This document shows, piece by piece, positions 1,802 through 35,564 of a stretch of 36,395 nucleotides of DNA. The stretch spans positions 1-36,395 of the forward strand of contig CAZKLR010000001.1 in NCBI GenBank assembly GCA_964553695.1, in the 5' to 3' direction. The notes below the pieces were generated by a model. That model made no database searches. It saw nothing but the letters and a program-made list of their open reading frames with translations, and was not told the DNA's origin. A program made the position numbers and the translations under genes. Source of the DNA: an uncultured Candidatus Saccharibacteria bacterium. GTDB taxonomy: Bacteria > Patescibacteriota > Minisyncoccia > JAHIHE01 > JAGLIN01. Position 1 is the first letter of the stretch, and each line of letters opens with the position of its first letter.

Positions 1802-1937
1802 TTATTTTACCAAGGTAGGGGTTTATTTTCTCCTCCAGGTAATGAAAAGTATGGACTTATCACTTACAATTGACGACGAGCCTCCAGATACTTGTTTTTG
1901 GAAGGAAATCAACAAATGTTTATATAAACTTCGAAAA

Positions 1938-1977
1938 GAAGACTGAATTTTTATTTAGCCTTCTTTTTTGTTTTTTT
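1938..1977 (+). terminator. terminator-like hairpin inside the 5' leader of the ATP-grasp operon
   Basis: GAAGACTGA (1938-1946) pairs with TTAGCCTTC (1955-1963): 8 pairs including one G-U wobble, plus 1 mismatch. It is followed by TTTTTTGTTTTTTT. The stop codon TGA (1944-1946) of a 34-codon upstream ORF (1842-1946) lies in the 5' arm. Confidence 0.4.
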
Positions 1978-1998
1978 AAGATATTTTTAAGTTATATT

Positions 1999-4479
1999 AT
2001 GAAAAAGACAACAAAAAAAGTTACAAAATTAAAAGAAAAGATTGCCAGCAGGGTATTTTCTCGAAATATAAAAATTGAAGGGAGAACGCTTCTTTTGGTT
2101 AATACCGGATCAATTCGCAAGCGCTTTGTTTTGCAAAGGCTGAAAAAGTTAGGAATCAAATTAGTGGTACTCAATTGCGAACGCAATTGGGCGGAGCCAT
2201 ATGTGGATGAATGGATAATCGCCGATACTTCGCGTCATGCCGAGGCTTTGCGGGCGGTACAGGCGTTTATAAATAATCATCCGGAACGTAAAATCGAGGG
2301 TGTGTTTACCTTCTATGAAGATGACGTATTACTGACTTCCAAGATTGTAGACAAATTTGGATTTATAGGAATTCCTTATGCCGTGGCATCAAACGCGCGC
2401 AACAAAGATCTTTTTCGGAATTTTTGCGAGGAGAATGATATTTTATCTCCTTGGCATCGGAGAATTGAGTCTAAAAAGGACTTGGATTTTGTCCGGGAAA
2501 ACTTTACCTTCCCTGTTGTTATTAAGCCGGCTTACGGTTCTTCAAGTGCCTTTGTAGTAAAAGTTGAAATACCGGAGAATTTGGATGAAGAATTTGAATA
2601 TGTTAAAACTTCACTTTCGGAAACTGTGGAATCGGCGCTGGCGGACGGAAGGCAGATTATGATAGAAGAATATATTGATGGAAGCGAGGTAGACGTTGAT
2701 GTGCTGGTGCAAAACGGGATCGTTAAATTTTATTCCATTTCTGACAATAGTGCGACCCGCGAACCATTTTTTATTGAAACCTATCGGTTGACGCCCTCTA
2801 ATTTGCCGGACGATGATCAAGAAAATATTATTGCAACGGTGGAAGAGGTGCTGGAAAAAATGGGAGTGCGTGATGGATGTATTCATTTTGAGGCCAAACT
2901 CACTAAGCGGGGTACAGTGCCGATTGAGGCAAATTTGCGGATGGGGGGAGATGAAATGTATTCAAGCGTGAAAAAGGTTTGGGGTGTGGATTTGATTGAA
3001 GGTGCGGTCAAGATTGCTTTGGGCATATATATTCCTAAACTAAAAATAGAAGAACCCAAACAGTGTATAATGGCTAAAACTTTTCTTGCGGATCATTCCG
3101 GAGTTATAGTGCAGCTGGACATAGATCCGGAGTTGGAAGAGAAAGAACATATTGAAGAAGTGAAATTCTTCAAGAAAGTTGGAGATACCGTAATGGCGCC
3201 TCCGGAAGGGTATGAATATTTGGGGTGGATGACAGTTTCGGGGGATAATTCGGCTGAAGCGCAGGATAATATGGAAGAAGCGGAGAAGCTTATAGAATAC
3301 GAAGTGGCAAGATTTCATTCCGCTTCGTCGATTGGAAAGACGTTGAGAAAAGACCATTGTTCTTCTTCGTTTTTTAAGACCGAAGCTGCAAAGAAACGTG
3401 AGAAGATAGAAAAAATACAAAAGATGTCAATAAAGGATCAGCGGAATTTGCACATTGGAATAGTCTGTAATCTTTATGACAAGGATGGAGATGCAACTTT
3501 GGAAAAAGAACTGACTGTGATAGGGGTTAATATTCAGAATGCTTTGAAAGAGCGGGGATACAAAGTTAGCTTTTTCGATTTTAACGACGTTGAAAAGGCG
3601 TTTAATGATTTGAAAAATAGTGACGTGGATTTGGTGTTCAATGTTTGCGAGAGAATCAATAATTCCAGTCTTTTGGAGCCGCATGTCGCTTCGCTCTTGG
3701 ATGTCCTGGAAATTCCATATACCGGCTCCAACCCTTTTACTTTAAGTCTTTGCATTGATAAAATTCGCGTGAAAAAGCTTTTGAGTTATCACAAGATTCC
3801 GACTCCGGAATGGGATTATGTTTATTCTATGGATGACAACGTCAGAGATGACCTTAAATATCCTTTAATTGTCAAACCTGCCAATACGGATAATTCCATC
3901 GGTATCACAAATAATTCTGTCGTAACCAATGAAGAGCAGCTCAAGAAACAGTTGGAGTATGTAGTTAAGGAAATGGGAAGGCCGGCGCTTATCGAAGAGT
4001 ATATCGAAGGTGACGAATACGATGTTTCGATTATAGGAAGCGAGGAGGAAGATTTGCGTGTTTTACCGCTTTCTCGTTCTGTGTTTGATAAAATGCCTGA
4101 AGGCTATTGGCACATTTATCCTTTTGAATCGAAATATGGAGAAGAGGAGGTTTATAAAAGATATATATCCGTGCAGAGACCGCCAAAGAACATAAGCAAA
4201 AAATTGGAAGCGGTTATAAGCGAGATTGCCTTGGATACTTATAACATTTTGGATTGCCACGATTATGGAAGGGTGGAAATTAGAGTGGATAAAAATGGAA
4301 ATCCTTATGTTTTGGAGCTTAACCCCAATCCTACCATCAATTTGACATCATGTGTGCCTTCAGTGGCCAAACTGACGGGAATGGATTATGGCGATTTCTT
4401 GGAGGAAATTATCAGAATGGCGATAAAACGTTATAAGAACCGGCCGCCTTACTATCATTTACAGGCTAATTTAATTTAA
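1999..4479 (+). CDS. fused double ATP-grasp ligase (N-terminal amino-acid-ligase-like ATP-grasp plus C-terminal D-Ala-D-Ala-ligase-like module)
   Basis: The ORF track starts at TTG 1870, but the first 43 codons look like leader sequence, so I place the start at ATG 1999 (MKKTTKK). First module motifs: FPVVIKPAYGSSSAFVVKV, IMIEEYIDGSEVDVDVLV, IHFEAKLT..PIEANLRMGG. Second module, from about nt 3448: LHIGIVCN, LEIPYTGSN, DKIRVKKLL, YPLIVKPANTDNSIGI, ALIEEYIEGDEYDVSIIG, YGRVEIRVDKNGNPYVLELNPNP. The second set is typical of the Ddl family. Confidence 0.75.
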   Translation: MKKTTKKVTKLKEKIASRVFSRNIKIEGRTLLLVNTGSIRKRFVLQRLKKLGIKLVVLNCERNWAEPYVDEWIIADTSRHAEALRAVQAFINNHPERKIEGVFTFYEDDVLLTSKIVDKFGFIGIPYAVASNARNKDLFRNFCEENDILSPWHRRIESKKDLDFVRENFTFPVVIKPAYGSSSAFVVKVEIPENLDEEFEYVKTSLSETVESALADGRQIMIEEYIDGSEVDVDVLVQNGIVKFYSISDNSATREPFFIETYRLTPSNLPDDDQENIIATVEEVLEKMGVRDGCIHFEAKLTKRGTVPIEANLRMGGDEMYSSVKKVWGVDLIEGAVKIALGIYIPKLKIEEPKQCIMAKTFLADHSGVIVQLDIDPELEEKEHIEEVKFFKKVGDTVMAPPEGYEYLGWMTVSGDNSAEAQDNMEEAEKLIEYEVARFHSASSIGKTLRKDHCSSSFFKTEAAKKREKIEKIQKMSIKDQRNLHIGIVCNLYDKDGDATLEKELTVIGVNIQNALKERGYKVSFFDFNDVEKAFNDLKNSDVDLVFNVCERINNSSLLEPHVASLLDVLEIPYTGSNPFTLSLCIDKIRVKKLLSYHKIPTPEWDYVYSMDDNVRDDLKYPLIVKPANTDNSIGITNNSVVTNEEQLKKQLEYVVKEMGRPALIEEYIEGDEYDVSIIGSEEEDLRVLPLSRSVFDKMPEGYWHIYPFESKYGEEEVYKRYISVQRPPKNISKKLEAVISEIALDTYNILDCHDYGRVEIRVDKNGNPYVLELNPNPTINLTSCVPSVAKLTGMDYGDFLEEIIRMAIKRYKNRPPYYHLQANLI

Positions 4480-4491
4480 TAAGTAAAATAT

Positions 4492-5376
4492 ATGTTTGCT
4501 ATCAGGGTCGTTACTGAATTGGAGGAGGCCCGCAAAGTTTGGAATCTTTTGAGTCCTAAACAGAATATTTATGAGGACTGGGATTTTCGTTTTGTGTTTT
4601 ACAAGTATTTTAATTATCCGCTGCGGTTTTATGTTGGAGAAGAAAATGGGGAAATAATCGGACTGCTTGCTTTGCAGGAAAATACCAATGTCGAATGTCT
4701 GGAGTTTTTTGGCGGAAGTTTTATGGAAGACAATCATACTTTGATAAAGTCTGGTTTTGAAAAATATATCCCGGAATTCTACGAAGCCATTAAAGAAAGA
4801 GCTAAATTGGAAGATATTATATACGATAACGAATTTGTTCCTATGGATTTTCTGGAAAACAAATATGTAATAGATCTAAGGGGATTGAATAACATCGAAG
4901 ATTATCTTAAAAAAACCTTTAGTTCAAAGACTCGTTCGAAATTGCGCAAAAAGATAAAACGAATAGAAGCTCTAAAATTTGTTGTTGTTGATAATCGATA
5001 TGCGGATATAGATGCTTTAATGCAATTTAATCGAAAAAATTTTGGTGTGGAATCATCTTTTAACAAGCCTCATCGTCAGCAGATTTATCATGATCTAGCG
5101 GGTAGTAGTTTTAAAGTAGTGATGATTTCGGCTGAAATTGACGAAAAATTAGAGGGTGTGTCTTTTGCAATCAAGTTCGAAAATACTTTTGTCAGTTTAA
5201 ATGCAGGCGTGAATAAAACGGATTTTGAAGATTTGGGGAATGTTATGTTGCTCAAGCGAATAGAGAAAGCAATTAATTTGGGTTGTAACGTTTATGATGC
5301 TGGATTAAACGATTTGGGGTGGAAAAAACAATGGCATCTAAAGCAAATTCCACAATATAAGTTCTACTATGAGTAA
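4492..5376 (+). CDS. GNAT-fold acyltransferase, FemAB/BioF2-like (Acetyltransf_6) family
   Basis: 294-aa ORF starting 12 nt after the ATP-grasp gene. The C-terminal part (GVSFAIKFENTFVSLNAGVN..LGNVMLLKRIEKAINLGCNVYDAGLNDLGWKKQW) resembles the FemAB-like/CelD-like GNAT domain, which ends in G..x.YK..W. Confidence 0.55.
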   Translation: MFAIRVVTELEEARKVWNLLSPKQNIYEDWDFRFVFYKYFNYPLRFYVGEENGEIIGLLALQENTNVECLEFFGGSFMEDNHTLIKSGFEKYIPEFYEAIKERAKLEDIIYDNEFVPMDFLENKYVIDLRGLNNIEDYLKKTFSSKTRSKLRKKIKRIEALKFVVVDNRYADIDALMQFNRKNFGVESSFNKPHRQQIYHDLAGSSFKVVMISAEIDEKLEGVSFAIKFENTFVSLNAGVNKTDFEDLGNVMLLKRIEKAINLGCNVYDAGLNDLGWKKQWHLKQIPQYKFYYE

Positions 5377-5422
5377 AAACTAATACGTTTTAAAAAGGAG
5401 GGCAGTGGGTATAAAAATGTAG

Positions 5423-5450
5423 TTGGCTTAATAAAGAATAATGTTATAAT
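5423..5450 (+). promoter_or_regulatory. sigma70-like promoter
   Basis: TTGGCT (5423-5428), 16-nt spacer, TATAAT (5445-5450), with a TGT extended -10 element. Confidence 0.4.
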
Positions 5451-5487
5451 AAATCTATAAGATAACATTTATAATTTTAAGTCAGAT

Positions 5488-6384
5488 ATGAGCGAACTTT
5501 TTATTTTGCCGTTTGATCATCGCGGTTCTTTTCAGGAAAAAATGTTTGGGATTCTGGGGGAACCAACAGCAGATGAGAGGGAAAAAATCAAATTCTTTAA
5601 GGAAATAATTTATAACGGATTTAAAATTGCAATCGAATCGGGGAAGGTTCCCAAGGAAGGCGGAGCTATTTTGGTAGACGAAGAATTTGGAGATAAAATT
5701 ATTCGAGATGCAAAGCAGAACGGCTATAAAGTTTCTATTTGTTGCGAAAAAAGCGGCCAGGAAGAGTTTGATTTTGAATTTGGGGAAAATTTCAAGGAGC
5801 ATATCGAGAAATATCGTCCGGAATATGTGAAGGCTTTGATAAGATATAATCCGGACGGAGATCAGGATTTAAATGAAAGGCAAACTGAGAAGTTGAAGGT
5901 TTTGACTGATTATTGTCATGAAAATGGCTATAAGCTTATGCTGGAGCCTTTAGTTCCGCCGACAGAAAGACAGTTAGAAATCCTCGAGGGCGATAAAGAA
6001 GCCTATGATCATGAAATGAGACCCCAATTAATGGAGTTGATGATTGAAGAACTTCAAGACGGAGGAGTCGAGCCGGATATTTGGAAAATAGAGGGGCTGG
6101 AAGAAGAAGATGACTATAAAATGCTAGTTGAACAAGTGCAAACGCAAGGAAGAAAATCTAATATTATTATTTTGGGCAGGCATGCCGAGGAGAATCAAGT
6201 TGAAAAATGGCTGAAAATTGGGGCGAAAGTGCCAGGAGTGGTCGGATTTGCTGTCGGCCGAACGATTTTTTGGGATGCGCTTTTGGAATATAAGTCGGGA
6301 AAAATTACAGCCGATGACGCAGCTAAGGCGATTGCGGAGAGATTTGAGCATTTTTATAAGGTTTTTAAAGAGGGAAACAACTAA
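5488..6384 (+). CDS. DUF2090 / LacD-like class I aldolase-fold (beta/alpha)8 protein
   Basis: 298-aa ORF. The N-terminus MSELFILPFDHRGSF and overall layout resemble the IolC C-terminal DUF2090 / 2-deoxy-5-keto-gluconate-6-P aldolase-like family. Confidence 0.55.
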   Translation: MSELFILPFDHRGSFQEKMFGILGEPTADEREKIKFFKEIIYNGFKIAIESGKVPKEGGAILVDEEFGDKIIRDAKQNGYKVSICCEKSGQEEFDFEFGENFKEHIEKYRPEYVKALIRYNPDGDQDLNERQTEKLKVLTDYCHENGYKLMLEPLVPPTERQLEILEGDKEAYDHEMRPQLMELMIEELQDGGVEPDIWKIEGLEEEDDYKMLVEQVQTQGRKSNIIILGRHAEENQVEKWLKIGAKVPGVVGFAVGRTIFWDALLEYKSGKITADDAAKAIAERFEHFYKVFKEGNN

Positions 6385-27862: not shown

Positions 27863-27977
27863 GGATACTTTTTATTTTTTTAAAAATATACTATAATATT
27901 TTTAAGGTTTTTATCCTTGGTTTTAAAACGAAAAGTAACAAATAGCAGAAAGAATTATTTTTTAAACAAAAGGCCTC

Positions 27978-29219
27978 ATGTCAAAAGAAAATATCGTAAT
28001 AGGACTTGATCTAGGTACAAGTCAAATCAGAACAATCGTAGCACAGATACAGGGAGACGATTCCAAACCGTTGGTTCTTGGAGTTGGGACAGCGCCATCT
28101 GCCGGCATTAGTAATGGAGTAGTTGTTGATATAGAAGAAACTATAAACGCTATTAACAAGTCCAAAGAGGAGGCCGAGAGAATTGCGGGTGTTCCTATTG
28201 AGCATGCTTTTGTCAGCATAAATGGTAAACATATAGTATCTCAGTTTTCCAAGGGGGTTGTTGCAGTGTCTAGGGCCGATGGTGAAATAAGCGAAGAAGA
28301 TGTGAATCGAGTTATAAACGCCGCGCAAGCAATTTCTATTCCTAATAATAAGGAAATCATAAACATTGTTCCTTGTAGCTACACTATTGACGGACAGGAA
28401 CAGATTAAATATCCGGTGGGAATGAGCGGAGTGCGTTTGGAAGTTAATGCTTTGCTGGTACAGGGCGCTGCTCCGTTTATAAAGAATTTAGAAAAATGCG
28501 TGCAGCAAAGATGCGGAATTGATATCGATGATTTGGTTTTTGCTCCGATGGCGGCCACAAAAGCGGTTATTTCGCGCAGACAGAAAGAATTGGGCGTGGT
28601 TGTTGTTGATCTGGGCAAAGAAACCACGGGCATTTCTGTGTATGAGGATGGAAATATCTTGGGAATGAAAATAATTCCGATCGGTTCAGGGCACATAACA
28701 AATGATATTGCAATCGGTTTAAGAACTTCTATTGACGTTGCGGAAAAGATAAAACTTGAGTATGGAAATACAGTACCGGAAGAGATTAATAAAAATGAGG
28801 AAATAGATTTGAGCGAAATGGATTCTAATGAAGAGGGTGTTTTTAAGAGACAATATATTTCTGAAATTATAGAAGCTCGCGTTGAAGAAATTTTTACAAT
28901 GGTGGATGATGAACTTAAAAAATTGGATAAGAGCGGAATGCTTCCAGCCGGTGTCGTAATTACCGGCGGTGGAGCTAAATTGCCAGGCATAATAACCCTT
29001 GCAAAAAGAGTGCTTAGACTTCCCGCTCAAATAGGCTACCCAATGGAAATGAACGGTGTTGTGGACAAGATTGATGATCCTGAGTTTGCAACTTCCGTGG
29101 GCTTAATACTGTGGGAGGCTGATGACAATGGAGCATTTTCTATGGAAAAAAAAGGAGGGGTTGATTTCGGAGGATTAGGGAGAAAAATAGGCGGAATTCT
29201 CAAGAATATCCTTCCTTAG
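27978..29219 (+). CDS. ftsA: cell division protein FtsA
   Basis: 413 aa actin-fold protein. Motifs: IVIGLDLGTSQIRTIVA, VVDLGKETTGISVY, GSGHITNDIA, GVVITGGGAKLPG. Confidence 0.9.
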   Translation: MSKENIVIGLDLGTSQIRTIVAQIQGDDSKPLVLGVGTAPSAGISNGVVVDIEETINAINKSKEEAERIAGVPIEHAFVSINGKHIVSQFSKGVVAVSRADGEISEEDVNRVINAAQAISIPNNKEIINIVPCSYTIDGQEQIKYPVGMSGVRLEVNALLVQGAAPFIKNLEKCVQQRCGIDIDDLVFAPMAATKAVISRRQKELGVVVVDLGKETTGISVYEDGNILGMKIIPIGSGHITNDIAIGLRTSIDVAEKIKLEYGNTVPEEINKNEEIDLSEMDSNEEGVFKRQYISEIIEARVEEIFTMVDDELKKLDKSGMLPAGVVITGGGAKLPGIITLAKRVLRLPAQIGYPMEMNGVVDKIDDPEFATSVGLILWEADDNGAFSMEKKGGVDFGGLGRKIGGILKNILP

Positions 29220-29288
29220 GTATTTTCTTGCGATATTTTTGGAAAAAAGTTATTATGGAAATATAAGAGTATTAATAGTTTAAAATAT

Positions 29289-30800
29289 ATGAAAGAAATA
29301 AAACCAGAACTGGAAACTTTCGCAAGGATAAAGGTTGTTGGCGTGGGAGGAAGTGGCAATCATGCAATAAGCAGAATGATGGAGGCTAATTTGAAAGGAA
29401 TCGATTTTATTGCTGTAAATGCGGATGCCCAGGACCTTCACCATTGCAGAGTTCCGGAAAAGATACATATAGGGAAAAATTTAACCAGAGGTTTGGGCGC
29501 GGGTATGAATCCTGATATCGGACGCCAGGCGGCAGAGGAAAATAAGGATGAAATTCAAGATGCGCTCAAAAATGCCGATATGGTTTTTGTAACCTGCGGT
29601 CTGGGGGGAGGAACAGGAACAGGCGCCGCTCCTATTATTGCTGAAGCAGCCAAGGATGCCGGAGCTTTGACGGTAGCGGTGGTAACTAAGCCTTTTGCTT
29701 TTGAAGGAATGCAAAGAAGAAAAATTGCCGAGGCCGGGCTTGAAGCGCTGAAGGCGAATGTGGATACGATTATTACAATTCCAAACGATAAAATTCTTCA
29801 AGTAATTGATAAAAACACTCCTTTACTTGATTCCTTCAAAATAGTTGATGACGTTTTGAGACAAGGAGTTCAAGGAATCTCAGATCTTATAACTATTCCT
29901 GGTATAGTAAATGTTGATTTTGCCGATGTAAAATCTATTATGCAGAACACCGGTCCGGCCCTTATGGGAATCGGACGTGCTTCCGGTGAAAATAGAGCTG
30001 TGGATGCTGCCAAACAGGCGATAAACAGTCCTCTTTTGGAACTTTCTATTAATGGTGCCCGGGGAGTTTTGTTTAATATAAGCGGTGGGGCAGATTTGAC
30101 TATGATGGAAGTTAATGATGCGGCACAGGTTATTACTGAGTCTGCTGATCCGGAAGCAAAAGTTATTTTTGGTGCTATAACAGATGAGGATTTAAAAAAG
30201 GGAGAAATAAAAATTACAGTAATTGCTACAGGTTTTCAATCTCCTACTATTCCATATACCCCCAAGAAGCAGCAAGTTGGCAGGGGTTTTAGCGAGGTTG
30301 AAACAATAAAAACGGAATCGGTTCAAGAAAATAAACAGGAAGATTTATTTAGACCAAAATCTGATATAAGTTTATCTAAAGTTGATAGTTTGCCAAGTTT
30401 CTCAAAAAAGAACTTGTCATCTTCTATTGCCGAAGTATTTAAGAAAGATTTGAGAGATAAGAATAAAGAAAAAGAGGAAATAGTAAAAGAAGAAAAAACG
30501 GAAATTAAAAAGGAGGAAAATATAGAAAGAAAAGAAACTGGATTGGATAGCTTGTTTGTGCCTAAAGCTGCTCCCAAATATGTTAGCGAGCCTGCAGTTT
30601 CTTCTGGTTTTTATGAAGATAAAGAAAAAAGGTCCAGCGATAGAGCTTTTTCAGATATTTCCAGGAATGAAAAAAGATCCGAAGAGAGCGTAAATAAACC
30701 TTTTGCCTCAAAGATCAGTAATATAAAATACAGTGATGAGTATGATATCCCTGCTTTTTTGAGAAAAAAGATGGATAAAAATAAAAATATTTCAAATTAA
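29289..30800 (+). CDS. ftsZ: cell division protein FtsZ with long C-terminal linker
   Basis: 503 aa. [17 protein letters not shown], signature [14 protein letters not shown], and NVDFADV. The core ends about aa 320, followed by a K/E/S-rich linker of about 165 aa and the conserved tail DIPAFLRKK. Confidence 0.95.
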
Positions 30801-30835
30801 ATCTCTATAGTAAATTGTAAACAAAAATAAAAATC

Positions 30836-30898
30836 CTGCCCTTTAAGGAAGTTGTCTGTTTTTGATGTTGTCAAAATAAACGTAAAAGGCAGTTTTTT
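30836..30898 (+). terminator. putative complex terminator after ftsZ
   Basis: Outer stem CTGCCCTTTA (30836-30845) / TAAAAGGCAG (30883-30892) with 1 mismatch and a 37-nt interior, followed by TTTTTTATTTTTT. Confidence 0.35.
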
Positions 30899-30943
30899 AT
30901 TTTTTATTTGCGGACAAAATTAATCAGGTAAAAAAAGTAAATC

Positions 30944-32689
30944 ATGGAACCTAAAAAAATAAAAGTACAGCAAGTAAGAAAAAGAGACGGCAGAATTGTA
31001 AAATTTGATAAGAAAAAGATTACCGGTGTTTTAATGAAAGCTTTTAAAGCTACAGACGAAGGCGGTCTTAGAAATGCGCAGGATTTAACGAGGAAGATAG
31101 AGCACGAAATAGACAAAAGGTTCACAGTGAGAAATGGCGGCGGCAAAATGAAAGCGGAAATTCCTACGGTTGAGGAAATTCAGGATATTGTGGAAGGGAT
31201 TTTGATAAGAGAAAATTATGTTGATACTGCCAAGGCTTTTATTATTTATAGGGAACAGCACAGAAGGCTGCGCGAGAATCAGGAGGTTCTTAAAAATGCC
31301 GTTGATTTGGTTGATGCCTATTTGAGCGAGATGGACTGGAAAGTCAAAGAGAACAGCAATATGTCTTATTCTCTGCAAGGGCTTAATAATTACATCGGGG
31401 AGATTGTTACTTCCAAATATTGGATAGAAAAAATTTATCCGCCGGAGGTGCGTGATGCTTACGTTGATGGCGATTTTCATATTCATGATCTGGGGCTGCT
31501 TTCTGTTTATTGTTGCGGATGGGATTTGAAGGATCTCTTGACGCGTGGATTTGGCGGGGTTAAAGGGAAAATTGAAAGCGGGCCGGCTAAACATTTTCGT
31601 TCGGCTTTGGGCCAGCTGGTAAATTTTCTTTATACTTTGCAGGGAGAAGCGGCAGGAGCGCAGGCTATTTCCAATTTCGACACATTGCTTGCTCCTTTTA
31701 TCAGATATGATCAGCTTACTTATCGTGAAGTTAAGCAGGCAATGCAGGAGTTTTTATTTAATATGAATGTTCCAACTCGTGTAGGATTCCAGACGCCTTT
31801 CACAAATATTACGATGGATTTGACTGTGCCTTCCACTTTGGCGAATGAGGCGGTGATAATAGGCGGGCAGCCTCAAAAAGAACAGTATAAAGATTTTGCG
31901 AGCGAAGTCATTCTTTTAAATAAAGCTTTTGCGGAGGTGATGTCGGCAGGGGATTCAAGCGGCAGAGTTTTTACTTTCCCTATTCCAACCTATAATATTA
32001 CCAAAGATTTTAATTGGGACGATCCGGAGCTGGAACCGCTTTGGGAAATGACTGCCAAATATGGAATCCCTTATTTTTCCAACTATATAAACAGCGATAT
32101 GAATCCGGAAGACGCTCGTTCAATGTGCTGTCGTTTGCGTCTCGACAATCGCGAGCTCTACAAACGCGGCGGCGGGCTTTTTGGAGCAAATCCTATGACG
32201 GGTTCTATTGGAGTTGTAACGATCAATTTGCCAAGAATTGGATATACTTCAAAAAATAAGAAAGAATTCTTTAAGCGTTTGGAAGAATTGATGGGTTTGG
32301 CAAAAGTGAGTTTGGAAATCAAAAGAAAGACTTTGGAAAATTTTACCGCCAATGGACTTTATCCGTATTCCAGGCATTATCTTGAAAATATAAAATTGCA
32401 GAGAGGTGAGTACTGGGGCAATCACTTTTCAACTATCGGAATTATAGGAATGAATGAGGCGCTTTTGAATTTCTTCGGTCCCAAGACCAATATTGCTACT
32501 CCGAAAGGTATGGCTTTTGCAGAAGAAATTCTGAATTTTATGCGTGATAAGATGGTTGAATATCAGGAAGAAACCGGAAATTTGTATAATTTGGAAGCGA
32601 CTCCCGGAGAAGGCACCTCTTACCGTTTGGCTCGCAAGGACAAGGCCAAATATCCGGATATTCTTACGGCAAATGATAATATAATATAA
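30944..32689 (+). CDS. nrdD: anaerobic ribonucleoside-triphosphate reductase, C-terminally truncated (possible pseudogene)
   Basis: 581 aa. N-terminal ATP-cone (VRKRDGRIVKFDKKKI), then a class III RNR core (NMSYSLQGLNNY, HIHDL, CCGWDL, GAQAISNFDT, FTFPIPTYN, YFSNY.NSDM..EDARSMCCRLRLD, LEATPGEGTSYRLARKDKAKYPDI). The ORF stops at ..LTANDNII* with no Zn-ribbon and no RVxGY glycyl-radical motif. About 130-150 aa appear to be missing. Confidence 0.85.
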   Translation: MEPKKIKVQQVRKRDGRIVKFDKKKITGVLMKAFKATDEGGLRNAQDLTRKIEHEIDKRFTVRNGGGKMKAEIPTVEEIQDIVEGILIRENYVDTAKAFIIYREQHRRLRENQEVLKNAVDLVDAYLSEMDWKVKENSNMSYSLQGLNNYIGEIVTSKYWIEKIYPPEVRDAYVDGDFHIHDLGLLSVYCCGWDLKDLLTRGFGGVKGKIESGPAKHFRSALGQLVNFLYTLQGEAAGAQAISNFDTLLAPFIRYDQLTYREVKQAMQEFLFNMNVPTRVGFQTPFTNITMDLTVPSTLANEAVIIGGQPQKEQYKDFASEVILLNKAFAEVMSAGDSSGRVFTFPIPTYNITKDFNWDDPELEPLWEMTAKYGIPYFSNYINSDMNPEDARSMCCRLRLDNRELYKRGGGLFGANPMTGSIGVVTINLPRIGYTSKNKKEFFKRLEELMGLAKVSLEIKRKTLENFTANGLYPYSRHYLENIKLQRGEYWGNHFSTIGIIGMNEALLNFFGPKTNIATPKGMAFAEEILNFMRDKMVEYQEETGNLYNLEATPGEGTSYRLARKDKAKYPDILTANDNII

Positions 32690-32701
32690 ACTTTCAAATA
32701 T

Positions 32702-32727
32702 AAAACAGCCTGTTAAAGGCTGTTTTT
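32702..32727 (+). terminator. rho-independent terminator immediately after the nrdD breakpoint
   Basis: AACAGCC (32704-32710) / GGCTGTT (32718-32724), loop TGTTAAA, then TTT. Confidence 0.6.
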
Positions 32728-32815
32728 ATGAAAAAAACTTATGGCTTTATTCTTTACTTTTTGCGCTATAAGCCTTATTATTAAGTTAAGATTATTTTTT
32801 AAAATATAAATTTCT

Positions 32816-33838
32816 ATGCAAAGAACGGAAATTATAAAGCAAATAGAAGAATTGAGAAATTCAAAAGTTGTGAGTTATATAACGAGTGATAGACAAGGTC
32901 CTATAAATGCGCGCGTGGCGATGGATATTATTCCGATTATCAGCTCCCAGCTTCGCAAAATAGGAAAAACGAGTAAGATTGATTTAGTTTTGTACAGCTC
33001 CGGAGGTGACACAATGGTCCCGTGGCGGCTGGTTTCGATGATCCGGGAATATTGTGATCAGTTTTCAGTAATTGTTCTTTATAAAGCTCATAGCGCGGCA
33101 ACGATGATTTCCCTGGGGGCGGATGAAATTGTTATGAGTGATATGTCGGAACTTTCACCAATCGATCCTTCAACGTCTAATTTTTTCAATCCGTCTGATC
33201 CGCAAAATCCCCAGAGCAGGATTCCGATTTCCGTTGAAGAAGTAATGGCTTATTTTGATCTGGCAAAAAATAAATTTGGGATTAAAAGCGATGAAGAGCT
33301 CACAAAGATTTTCAATAAGTTCATCGAAAGCAATCCTTCCATACATCCGCTGGCGTTGGGCAATGTGAACAGAACGCATAATCTTATTAAAATCCTTGCC
33401 AAACGCCTTTTAAAAAGCCACAGAGAGTCTCTCAAGGAGGAAGAAATTGATAGAATCATTGAATTTTTAACGGAAAAACTATACTCGCATCAGTATTATA
33501 TCGGCAGAAAGGAAGCCAAAGAAGATCTGGGGATAAAAACTGTGACTTATGCCGATGAGAAATTGTCAGAGTTGATGACCAGTCTTTATGAAAGCTATGC
33601 CGAGGAAGCGCAGATAAACAAAATCTGGAATCCGGAAATTGAGATTGAAGGAAAGGAAACGCAGAATAAAGAATATAAAATCGCTTTTGTGGAAAGCGGG
33701 GAAATGCAGAATTATTTCTCTTTGGGGATCGAATTGAAGAAAGTAAGAAAACCTGTGCCTCTTCAGACTCCGCAAGGTCCGATTAATATTGAACAGGACC
33801 AAATTGTGTGGAGAATGACAGGGCAGGGGTGGAGATAG
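32816..33838 (+). CDS. Clp-fold serine protease, SDH (serine dehydrogenase proteinase)/S49 SppA-like family
   Basis: 340 aa. VVSYITSDRQG...IDLVLYSSGGDTMVPWRLVSMIREYCDQFSVIVLYKAHSAATMISLGADEIVMSDMSELSPIDPS matches the ClpP/crotonase-fold SDH family pattern, with the nucleophile Ser in HSAAT. The C-terminal about 200 aa are helical with no motif I recognise. Confidence 0.65.
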   Translation: MQRTEIIKQIEELRNSKVVSYITSDRQGPINARVAMDIIPIISSQLRKIGKTSKIDLVLYSSGGDTMVPWRLVSMIREYCDQFSVIVLYKAHSAATMISLGADEIVMSDMSELSPIDPSTSNFFNPSDPQNPQSRIPISVEEVMAYFDLAKNKFGIKSDEELTKIFNKFIESNPSIHPLALGNVNRTHNLIKILAKRLLKSHRESLKEEEIDRIIEFLTEKLYSHQYYIGRKEAKEDLGIKTVTYADEKLSELMTSLYESYAEEAQINKIWNPEIEIEGKETQNKEYKIAFVESGEMQNYFSLGIELKKVRKPVPLQTPQGPINIEQDQIVWRMTGQGWR

Positions 33839-33847
33839 TAAACGAAA

Positions 33848-34489
33848 ATGAAAAGAAAAGGTGTCAATATATGTCTAGTAGCTCCAATCATAACCTTTTT
33901 TTTGGGTCTCAATTTGTCTATTTTTTTAAAGCTGATAGATGATATTTTAAAGCGGATAAATCTTAATGTTGTAGCAATTGTTATAACAATTTGCCTTGCG
34001 TTTGGTGTGCCTCTCTATAAAGAAAATAAAAAAAAGAGATCTACTGCTAGACAAGTGTTACAGGAGATAAAAAATGCGATGAGCCAAATAGAGATTATCC
34101 ACGAAAGGGGTGATAGCTTTTCTTTATCTGACAGGCTACTTCCTACAGATAATTGGCATAATAATCTCTCTTTGTTCACAAATGATCTGAATGAAAATGA
34201 AAGAAAATCTGTAAGCTGCTTCTACAAAGAGGCTGTTTGTATTGATAATATGATATTTCGTGCAGTAAATCAGCTCTTTAATGCTCCTGTCTTATCTTCG
34301 TATTCTTCGGATGATAGTTGTGATAATTCTAATAAAGGCATACAATATTCTTCTATTACTTCTGGGTTTGAGCTTAATATAAGGACCTTATTGCTGGAGG
34401 AAATTAATGTTATTAAGTCGATAGATATGATTTCTGCGGTAGATAAATTAGAAGAGATTTCTGTTAAAAAATGGCTTAGATTTTTATAA
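33848..34489 (+). CDS. hypothetical 2-TM membrane protein (213 aa)
   Basis: Starts 9 nt after the protease gene. Two N-terminal TM helices (VNICLVAPIITFFLGLNLSIFLKLI; VVAIVITICLAFGVPLY), then a soluble domain of about 150 aa with no recognisable motif. More AT-rich than its neighbours by eye. Confidence 0.5.
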   Translation: MKRKGVNICLVAPIITFFLGLNLSIFLKLIDDILKRINLNVVAIVITICLAFGVPLYKENKKKRSTARQVLQEIKNAMSQIEIIHERGDSFSLSDRLLPTDNWHNNLSLFTNDLNENERKSVSCFYKEAVCIDNMIFRAVNQLFNAPVLSSYSSDDSCDNSNKGIQYSSITSGFELNIRTLLLEEINVIKSIDMISAVDKLEEISVKKWLRFL

Positions 34490-34566
34490 GGCAAACTTTT
34501 CTGTCAAAATTTTCTTCGACTCAACTTAGGTGGAAATAATAAAGATCGAAAATAATTTTAAAAAAC

Positions 34567-35286
34567 ATGCTAATCGGCGGACTGCAAAAATTTACAGCCT
34601 TGGATTATCCCGACAAGATTGCGGCGACGATTTTTACGGTGGGGTGTAATTTTCGCTGTCCTTTTTGCCATAATGGCGAGATTGTGGAGATTGGTTCAGA
34701 GAATAATTTTGAGATTATCAGTGAAGCGGAGGTTTTGAAGTTTTTAAAATCTCGGCAAGGCGAACTGGATGGGGTTTGCATTACGGGCGGAGAGCCGACA
34801 TTGCAGAAAGACCTTCTTGAATTTATAAAAAAAGTGAGGAAGATGGGATTTTTGGTGAAGGTGGATACTAATGGTTCAAATTTTGAAGTGGTGAAAAATT
34901 TGGTGGCAGAAAATATTGTTGATTATTTTGCAATTGATATAAAGACCACTTTTCAGAAATATGATTTGGTTTCGGCGCCAAAAGACAGTGCGGAAAATAC
35001 TTTACGGAGCGTAGAATTTATACTAAAGAATAGCATTCCTTTAGAATTACGGACCACTATGGCTCCTGGAGTAGTTGCACTGGATGATTTTGATGAAATT
35101 ATCCGTGTTTTGGGAGAGGAAAATGATATATTATCCCGACTATTTCGATACAGTGTGCAGGCGTTTCGTCCGCAAAAATGTCTGGACGATCAATTTGAGA
35201 AACTTGTGCCTTATGATGATTTTATCCTGGAAGAAGCGGCGAATAAGATACGGAAATATTGTTCGCGAGTAGATGTGGTTAAATGA
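34567..35286 (+). CDS. nrdG: anaerobic ribonucleoside-triphosphate reductase activating protein (radical SAM)
   Basis: 239 aa. GGLQKFTALDYPDKIAATIFTVGCNFRCPFCHN (CxxxCxxC radical-SAM cluster) and GVCITGGEPTL. It appears full length. Confidence 0.85.
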   Translation: MLIGGLQKFTALDYPDKIAATIFTVGCNFRCPFCHNGEIVEIGSENNFEIISEAEVLKFLKSRQGELDGVCITGGEPTLQKDLLEFIKKVRKMGFLVKVDTNGSNFEVVKNLVAENIVDYFAIDIKTTFQKYDLVSAPKDSAENTLRSVEFILKNSIPLELRTTMAPGVVALDDFDEIIRVLGEENDILSRLFRYSVQAFRPQKCLDDQFEKLVPYDDFILEEAANKIRKYCSRVDVVK

Positions 35287-35297
35287 TATAAATAATT

Positions 35298-35564
35298 ATG
35301 AGATTTTCCTGCAAAGTTATAACTCGTGCTTCAAAAAATGAAGTCGTAGGAATTGAAAAATTGTCGCGACTTGGTTTGGATTTTGTAACAAAAGACCTAG
35401 ATATGCCTGAAATCAAGGTCTATACAACGGCCGTGCCGGTAGGCGGAAAGGCTAACAAGGAAGTTGTTAACTTATTGGCGGAGGCGCTGGGAGTCGCTAA
35501 AAGCAGGGTGAAAATTATCAGAGGCGACACTTCAAATAAAAAAATAATCGAGGTGGATGACTAA
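35298..35564 (+). CDS. yggU: DUF167 (YggU) family protein
   Basis: 88 aa. The sequence V.T.AVPVGGKANKEVVNLLAEALGVAKSRVKIIRGDTSNKKIIEV is the typical DUF167 C-terminal pattern. Confidence 0.75.
   Translation: MRFSCKVITRASKNEVVGIEKLSRLGLDFVTKDLDMPEIKVYTTAVPVGGKANKEVVNLLAEALGVAKSRVKIIRGDTSNKKIIEVDD

Follow-up and report, generated by a model that had tools for sequence, protein, structure and literature searches.

A class III ribonucleotide reductase gene that is probably split into two pieces in a large clade of Patescibacteria

We analyzed the nrdD–nrdG locus in a 36,395-nt stretch of DNA (the window) from an uncultured Candidatus Saccharibacteria bacterium (GCA_964553695.1, contig CAZKLR010000001.1, positions 1–36,395, forward strand; GTDB lineage Bacteria; Patescibacteriota; Minisyncoccia; JAHIHE01; JAGLIN01). 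The nrdD gene of the window, for the catalytic subunit of a ribonucleotide reductase (RNR) of class III, stops early. Comparison with relatives makes it very probable that a large clade of Patescibacteria (Parcubacteria, Paceibacteria, and Moranbacteria) has the class III RNR gene split in two, into nrdD-N for the large piece and nrdD-C for the piece with the glycyl radical, and that the window genome is a member. The window would then represent an unremarkable member of a clade, large and apparently not described before, whose anaerobic RNR comes in two pieces. Our confidence in the split-gene architecture is high at the level of the clade; confidence that the window genome has its own NrdD-C and that the pieces would work as proposed below is good but indirect.

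A preliminary description of the window had listed an nrdD that ends early, a hairpin, two unrelated genes at 32816–34489 (the insert), and a complete nrdG after a further 77 nt, and all of these statements were confirmed (Table 1). The short NrdD (NrdD-N) belongs by sequence to the family of class III RNR catalytic subunits. It matched the Pfam profiles PF13597 (NRDD, E = 3.6e-144) and PF03477 (ATP-cone, E = 2.6e-19) and the NCBIfam profile NF006126 (874.9 bits, cut-off 548), and it contains the motifs YCCGWD and SMCCRLRLD. The cysteine pair of the latter is the finger-loop Cys-Cys (C400 and C401 of the alignment) that was invariant in 26 full-length relatives, and whose thiyl-radical role we take from established NrdD structures. 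The matches covered only positions 1–434 of the 562 in the NRDD profile and positions 2–552 of the 684 in NF006126. Since the ends of both profiles were unmatched, approximately 130 C-terminal NrdD residues are absent from the protein. Its C-terminal end before the stop codon is ...KYPDILTANDNII (also written ...LEATPGEGTSYRLARKDKAKYPDILTANDNII); the stop falls at the break typical of the clade, KYPDILTA, followed by a 5-residue tail. The polypeptide carries no CxxC..CxxC zinc site and no RVxGY loop. A motif scan of all six frames found RVxGY in no real open reading frame (ORF) of the window and likewise no zinc ribbon, and tblastn of four NrdD C-terminal domains against the 36-kb window gave no match (best E ~0.9), which bears out the earlier statement that no frame in the window encodes the radical-domain motif. 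Scanning the window for Rfam families and tRNAs gave no match.

The early stop is a character of the clade. When the 581-aa window protein was used as the query, at least 79 of the 120 nearest clusters consisted of short NrdD proteins (67–91% identity). Relatives at 76–91% identity had an NrdD of 577–585 aa that stopped 1–12 residues past KYPDI(I/L)TA; a sister group at 67–70% identity stopped at the same place but had a tail of 20–40 aa after KYPD/EI..(T/S)A. The NrdD proteins of more distant relatives (~65–69% identity) were 700–725 aa long and ran from ...TA through 4–13 variable residues into PYYTNS... and on through the radical loop. All short forms fell into one clade of a neighbor-joining tree. 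Full-length relatives differ from one another in both the length and the sequence of the stretch where the break falls (GEKE, NGTVGKKKGIE, and QYYHRDSDELSD), which suggests a tolerant loop.

The comparison with syntenic nrdD–nrdG loci that had been proposed earlier for finding the empty site yielded loci that lack the insert and have the same short nrdD. In L002 (91% identity), L007 and L008 (79%), L094–L098, and L100, the gene order was ftsZ–nrdD (578–585 aa)–nrdG–DUF167–comEC, ftsA lay upstream of ftsZ wherever the locus extended far enough, and the spacer between the short nrdD and nrdG was only 42–160 nt. The nrdD genes of the window and L002 were 91% identical in protein and 76% identical in DNA, with a nonsynonymous divergence (dN) of 0.075 and a saturated synonymous divergence (dS). 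For unsaturated pairs of short nrdD genes, dN/dS was 0.036–0.051. These results indicate that the short nrdD is under strong purifying selection; because dN/dS is approximately 0.04–0.05 and the synonymous sites are saturated, the short form is old and constrained.

We searched the protein collection for the missing piece, using as the query the C-terminal 137 aa of P0071, the closest full-length relative. The best matches were stand-alone proteins at 73–81% identity, which ranked ahead of full-length NrdDs. Complete stand-alone NrdD-C proteins numbered 60 among the top 120 clusters, with 54 more among the listed cluster members. They are 129–171 aa long (median 151.5) and consist of Met, a Lys-rich leader of 2–39 aa, and P(F/Y)YTNSSQLPVG...KYTGGTV...TPTFS(I/V)CPxHGY...CPKC...CEVYSRVVGYLRPVQQWN. 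The four zinc cysteines and RxVGY (the RVVGY loop) were invariant across the NrdD-C alignment, and at least three of the proteins are labelled hypothetical by NCBI. One NrdD-C, P0245, matched positions 550–683 of NF006126, complementing positions 2–552 matched by the window NrdD-N. On the Thermotoga maritima NrdD (4coi), residues 100–513 were matched by the N piece and 518–644 by the C piece. The two ORFs therefore tile the full-length protein exactly, with the NrdD-C of a relative rather than of the window genome, and this tiling indicates that NrdD-C comprises ~70 residues ahead of the zinc ribbon together with the glycyl-radical domain. Among the matches listed from a scan of the genome collection with the NrdD-C alignment, 79 loci had a full-length nrdD and one, L014, had a stand-alone gene.

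Both halves occur within one genome among the relatives. The ENA scaffold ZHAN22-2_SAMN18200500_METAG-scaffold_1 (831,018 bp) carries the NrdD-N P0044 (578 aa) at ~332.4–334.1 kb and the NrdD-C P0245 (156 aa) at ~798.9–799.4 kb on the opposite strand, and the same two proteins are in the metagenome-assembled genome (MAG) GCA_023132875.1, on contigs JAGLXN010000007.1 and JAGLXN010000003.1. The halves are thus ~465 kb apart, neither adjacent nor separated by a mobile element alone. A second N/C pair was recognized from its neighboring accessions (P0049, MCK4799536.1; P0299, MCK4799483.1), and P0067 (N) and P0138 (C) co-occurred in the same three ENA samples; an attempt to link P0138 by accession number found no partner. 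In three different genomes, nrdD-C stands in the context prfA(RF-1)–nrdD-C–ftsE–ftsX, and this shared context points to a relocated gene that has been inherited vertically.

In regards to the activase, the ORF downstream of the insert has the features of the radical-SAM activase cognate to a class III RNR: it scored 197.5 bits on TIGR02495 (NrdG2; cut-off 131.15) and has the CxxxCxxC motif and the Radical_SAM and Fer4_12 domains. The position of nrdG after nrdD-N was syntenic in all relatives examined. The order ftsA–ftsZ–nrdD-N–nrdG–DUF167–comEC was common to L002, L005, and L007, and L110 had the same order except for a protease insert between nrdD-N and nrdG. The hairpin after nrdD-N folded with −15.8 kcal/mol (z = −5.25). 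Inverted repeats directly 3' of the short nrdD were also seen, by eye in the spacer alignment, in L100 and L007, which lack the insert.

Table 1. Positions of the features of the nrdD-N/nrdG locus in the window.
Feature	Position	Strand	Description
ftsA-ftsZ	27978–30800	+	Upstream synteny anchor of the nrdD-N/nrdG locus
nrdD-N	30944–32689	+	581 aa; predicted large piece of a two-piece class III RNR (ATP-cone and most of the catalytic barrel)
Terminator-like hairpin	32702–32727	+	After nrdD-N; perfect 10-bp stem, 5-nt loop, A and T runs on the flanks
SDH-family ClpP-fold serine protease gene	32750–33838 (ORF 32816–33838, 340 aa, plus ~66 nt upstream)	+	PF01972, E = 8e-16
213-aa ORF, no family	33848–34489	+	Two N-terminal hydrophobic segments (by inspection); variable partner of the protease gene
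nrdG	34567–35286	+	Intact radical-SAM activase of class III RNR
DUF167/YggU gene	35298–35564	+	Downstream synteny anchor; PF02594, E = 6e-19; same position in relatives

On this basis we propose a two-piece enzyme. NrdD-N would supply the ATP-cone and the greater part of the catalytic barrel with its finger-loop cysteines, and NrdD-C (~150 aa) would supply the last 125–130 residues, namely the PYYTNS..KYTGG segment, the CxxC..CxxC zinc ribbon, and the RVVGY loop. Most likely, the two would associate non-covalently and rebuild a normal NrdD protomer. NrdG, which is kept beside nrdD-N, would make the radical on the glycine of RVVGY in NrdD-C, from which it would pass to the finger-loop cysteine (SMCCRL) of NrdD-N. 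After oxygen cleavage at the glycyl radical, NrdD-C could be swapped cheaply, by the logic established for GrcA/YfiD and pyruvate formate-lyase. Purifying selection on NrdD-N and the invariant motifs in NrdD-C lend indirect support to the association and activity of the halves. The protease module would have landed in the variable nrdD-N/nrdG spacer, separating nrdG without truncating anything.

Several observations weigh against the two-piece proposal. Both the assembly of NrdD-N with NrdD-C and the activation of NrdD-C by NrdG in trans are what we infer from the genes. No NrdD-C lies within the 36-kb window, and neither prfA nor ftsE is there; the expected NrdD-C site of this genome would lie outside the 36 kb, because the window is without these two genes. 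Moreover, the insert and the terminator-like hairpin uncouple nrdG from nrdD-N in the window genome. One full-length form in the neighbor-joining tree, P0071 (similar JGI loci, L142, L143, and L148), is nested next to the short-tail clade, and the history is therefore not one clean fission. Finally, the AlphaFold2 model of the full-length P0071 had a mean predicted local distance difference test score (pLDDT) of 63.5, with values <50 at residues 557–608, and is too poor to place the break in a surface loop.

The preliminary description had considered that the insert replaced the 3' end of nrdD, which would make nrdD a recent pseudogene and nrdG an orphan activase. The break and the insert do coincide in the window, which contains no radical domain; however, the identical break in relatives without the insert, the short forms in most of the closest clusters, the low dN/dS with saturated synonymous sites, and a complementary NrdD-C gene in the same genome as the short NrdD of a relative all refute this explanation. 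A recent pseudogene is excluded by the strong purifying selection on the short nrdD, and we regard it as highly improbable. The second option offered there, a radical domain encoded elsewhere as a separate polypeptide, is the one that the relatives support, through the abundance of stand-alone NrdD-C proteins and through the one that shares an 831-kb scaffold with a short NrdD. That the NrdD of this lineage normally ends here, with the radical domain supplied in trans, was named at the time as the observation that would overturn the pseudogene, and it is what the gene content of the relatives indicates. A chimeric contig, mis-joined at 32690–32815 or 34490–34566, was the third option, and the oddity of the arrangement itself is the only point that speaks for it. 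Contigs assembled from three other sequencing runs matched the window: L108 (SRR8925806) with 99.975% identity over 31336–35347, spanning both junctions; L001 (SRR23559934) with 99.0% identity over 27891–33334; and L109 (SRR31966184) with 100% identity over 32798–34223. Since these independent assemblies reproduce the junctions, the contig is not chimeric at the borders of the insert. A related insert in the same spacer of L110 and L111 argues in the same direction, and the probability of a mis-join is negligible.

Three further explanations accept the short NrdD as genuine. In the first of these, the lineage has the split gene and the window genome has lost NrdD-C, so that nrdD-N and nrdG would be decaying relics, with deoxynucleoside triphosphates supplied by salvage or by a different RNR. 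Such a loss fits the reduced, host-dependent nature of Patescibacteria, the lack of NrdD-C in the window, and the breaking up of the nrdD-N/nrdG unit by the insert and the hairpin. Nevertheless, the nrdD-N and nrdG ORFs are intact, NrdD-N is 90–91% identical to its relatives despite saturated silent sites, the arrangement is held at 99–100% identity in the contigs of the three other runs, and the expected neighbors prfA and ftsE lie outside the window. We therefore consider the loss of NrdD-C unlikely, although it is the least improbable of the alternatives. That the short NrdD works without a glycyl-radical domain, by another radical source or in another function, has no direct support and is very unlikely: nrdG is retained beside the short nrdD throughout the clade, the only known role of NrdG is glycyl-radical installation, and an intact NrdD-C co-occurs with a short NrdD. 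A split intein that joins the halves after translation by protein trans-splicing was suggested by NrdD-N tails ending in ...AC or ...VCA, and inteins are indeed common in these NrdDs (~900-aa forms such as P0059 carry one; that of P0156 ends in ...VCLHN/TSYR ~20 residues before the break). It was rejected because the NrdD-N tails are variable stretches of only 1–12 aa that lack an intein N-block. The NrdD-C leaders are variable and Lys-rich, without a terminal HN and Cys/Ser/Thr before P(F/Y)YTNS, and Pfam and NCBIfam found NrdD segments only and no intein domains. Trans-splicing is thus about as improbable as the pseudogene.

By every sequence criterion, the proposed two-piece enzyme is a class III RNR, except that the radical domain would be on a second, unlinked polypeptide. 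It belongs by sequence to the same family as the canonical single-chain NrdDs with their NrdG (phage T4, Escherichia coli, T. maritima 4coi, and P. copri 8p23), with the ATP-cone, barrel, finger-loop Cys-Cys, zinc ribbon, RVVGY, and adjacent nrdG. It differs in that the last 125–130 residues are on a separate polypeptide, which in relatives is encoded ~465 kb away, beside prfA and ftsEX. RNR catalytic subunits made of two ORFs that must associate have been described for the class II enzyme NrdJa/NrdJb of Pseudomonas aeruginosa, whose halves are adjacent (Crona et al. 2015, PMC4520616), and for the class Ia enzyme NrdA-a/NrdA-b of Aeromonas phage Aeh1, whose halves are adjacent with a homing endonuclease gene between them (PMC3045599). 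NrdJb and NrdD-C are also alike in that the C-terminal piece carries a zinc-finger domain. Unlike in these two systems, the RNR is of another class, the halves are unlinked, the break is without a mobile element, and the small piece bears the radical cofactor. Phage nrdD genes in pieces are known from the I-TevII intron of T4 and the three-piece nrdD of phiAS4 (Dwivedi et al. 2013, PMC3653736). Those pieces are adjacent, and are spliced back or of unstated role in single genomes, whereas the pieces described here are clade-wide, under selection, unlinked, and cellular. In the open-access papers and bioRxiv preprints searched, there was no account of a class III RNR encoded by two genes, nor of an autonomous NrdD radical domain or spare part; an earlier mention in other sources, such as RNRdb, is possible.

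NrdD-C also resembles GrcA/YfiD, the spare part of pyruvate formate-lyase, which is a small stand-alone protein in which a disordered N-terminal stretch precedes a glycyl-radical domain that is homologous to the C-terminal end of the partner enzyme. A small autonomous glycyl-radical protein of this kind is found in the NrdD-C of relatives; the window has no such ORF. The pyruvate formate-lyase that GrcA rescues is full-length and includes a radical domain; NrdD-N lacks one, and NrdD-C would thus be obligatory. NrdD-C also adds ~70 residues upstream of the zinc ribbon. A review of June 2026 states that, among glycyl-radical enzymes, small spare-part proteins are known for the formate lyases only (PMC13450708).

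Closer counterparts of GrcA were observed in other Patescibacteria. Seven loci with a full-length nrdD (~700 aa) also have an ORF of 81–106 aa (L026, 6464–6727; L028, 6507–6752; L031, 6523–6777; L034, 6516–6770; L050, 6451–6729; L055, 6455–6718; and L169, 864–1184), located between nrdD and nrdG in the six loci where the position was checked (all but L050). A CxxC..CxxC zinc ribbon and a glycyl-radical loop (...TEVYSR(I/V)VGYIRPV.QWN.GK...) are all that these mini-ORFs contain. Their full-length partner has a radical domain of its own, as that of GrcA does, and they look like a GrcA-type spare part for class III RNR. In addition, NrdD-C was found on two phage-like contigs: L013 (8001–8441, 146 aa), together with a P22/SU10 portal protein and an SU10 major capsid protein, and the IMG/VR contig L105 (6912–7337, 141 aa), together with tape-measure, baseplate-hub, and lysin genes. 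Neither NrdD-N nor nrdG was present in the flanks read, which suggests that the phage provides the radical subunit alone. We tentatively propose, with slightly more doubt than belief, a modular class III system in Patescibacteria, in which NrdD-C is obligatory in one clade, a mini spare part (81–106 aa) encoded between nrdD and nrdG serves other lineages that have a full-length NrdD, and phages bring NrdD-C alone to recharge the host NrdD-N during infection. If true, it would be the first case beyond the formate lyases of a glycyl-radical system with two components or a spare part, and the spare-part idea would extend past pyruvate formate-lyase.

The two-piece proposal has practical consequences. 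In metabolic reconstructions from Patescibacteria MAGs, a short NrdD ORF should be counted neither as a pseudogene nor as "RNR absent", and the 150-aa proteins annotated as hypothetical between prfA and ftsE would be the missing radical subunit. If the modular system proposed above is real, the activase could reach the radical domain without its flipping out of the barrel. With the radical on a separate polypeptide, the access of the activase to the buried glycine and the handling of oxygen damage become directly testable by mixing NrdD-N, NrdD-C, and NrdG. The system would also be a case in which streamlined genomes split the gene for an essential enzyme and then dispersed its parts, with phages able to carry the small piece alone.

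The insert between nrdD-N and nrdG is unconnected with the break in nrdD, to judge from the same break in the loci without it. Its protease ORF matched phrog_11747 (E = 3e-40) and had no PADLOC match. The protease family is very common and well conserved: more than 2000 homologues were found, the best 120 at 68–100% identity and with named sources that are mostly Moranbacteria or Parcubacteria. The 213-aa ORF gave nothing above the default threshold of 0.001 in Pfam, NCBIfam, PADLOC, and PHROGs, with two marginal PHROG matches (E = 0.02 and 0.06). It was also present in L108 and L109. In L110 and L111 (NrdD 86% identical), a homologous protease (89%) occupies the same nrdD-N/nrdG spacer; downstream of it lie a DUF6941 gene and a 210-aa ORF that is not related to the 213-aa ORF of the window. 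By blastn, only the segment of the protease gene with its upstream ~66 nt was similar (79%) between the inserts, and it is the sole part of the insert conserved at the DNA level. In L113, the protease (79%) stands in an unrelated island with a Schlafen/AlbA_2–HATPase_c_4 gene, an HNH nuclease, restriction-enzyme remnants, Vsr, and Fic, and with other small ORFs downstream. The 213-aa ORF was not homologous to the ORFs 3' of the protease in L110, nor, judged by their differing lengths, in L113.

These contexts suggest that the insert is an accessory module, consisting of a protease with a variable partner, and possibly related to defence, given its company in L113. Its mobility is suggested from the differing contexts in L110 and L113 alone. 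As had been reported in the preliminary description, no integrase or transposase ORF and no clear target-site duplication was found in the insert. The GGCAAA noted at both junctions (32668 and 34490) has 51 copies in the window and is consequently not a target-site duplication. The only repeat at the borders of the insert is an AT-rich inverted repeat at 32786–32805 and 34549–34565 (92% over 13 nt, including a perfect core of 11 nt), located immediately 5' of the protease start and shortly before nrdG; it was judged non-significant and is probably due to chance in AT-rich spacer DNA. With no recombinase, target-site duplication, convincing terminal repeat, or PADLOC match, region 32750–34489 does not qualify as a mobile element or defence cassette. 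A phage search with the insert gave weak matches only (26–36% identity). Intergenic DNA could not be aligned with that of relatives without the insert even at 91% protein identity, and the only boundaries that could be drawn were those of the segment shared with L110.

The content of the nrdD-N/nrdG spacer varied among relatives, from 42 nt (L094, 4744–4785), 118 nt, and ~120–160 nt to one ORF, two ORFs, and three ORFs (the three-gene insert of L110, 5620–8585). A membrane ORF of 99–108 aa was present in the spacers of L005 (11927–12226) and L006 (6596–6922). The spacer seems to tolerate or attract insertions.

In regards to the history of the break, the lineage of P0071, L142, L143, and L148 has a full-length NrdD of ~724–732 aa that is 75–76% identical to the window protein, and reflects either two fissions or one re-fusion. 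L142 and L143 also have an unexplained gap of ~750 nt between nrdD and nrdG. The long-tail sister group (P0074–P0082, P0086, P0088–P0091, and P0110) has tails of 20–40 aa that often end in a conserved ...(E/D)(A/V)QKQAVCA. Several of its NrdD clusters have the same longest-contig size as an NrdD-C cluster (P0110/P0170, 3,292 bp; P0074/P0281, 26,810 bp; and P0088/P0278, 7,604 bp). Judged from these equal contig sizes alone, the halves may still be adjacent in this group, a possible intermediate stage of fission. A scan of JGI metagenomes with an NrdD-C of the long-tail group gave, among the matches listed, no demonstrable stand-alone NrdD-C; the listed matches were full-length or contig-truncated nrdD genes, nearly all with nrdG downstream.

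Inteins were frequent in these NrdDs, among them the ~900-aa forms P0059, P0063, P0066, P0068, and P0070; one intein site lies after ...RVGFQ in otherwise short NrdD-N proteins. A second intein site is that of P0156 (...VCLHN/TSYRLA). The large viral contigs L106 and L107 carry a full-length, intein-bearing nrdD.

Two other regions of the window were noted. The first ORF (319–1770, +) encodes a Schlafen AlbA_2 and HATPase_c_4 protein, the same domain pair as in the L113 gene at 4116–5534, which lies directly upstream of the protease homologue and in the neighborhood of HNH, HpaII, Vsr, and Fic genes. The shared pair may hint that this ORF and the protease are both part of a pool of accessory or defence genes in these bacteria. 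Region 1870–6384 (+) encodes an 869-aa protein with two ATP-grasp modules (ATP-grasp_4 with LAL_C2, followed by a D-Ala-D-Ala-ligase C domain); a GNAT (Acetyltransf_6) gene and then a DUF2090 gene come next, and the region may be a peptide-ligase cluster.

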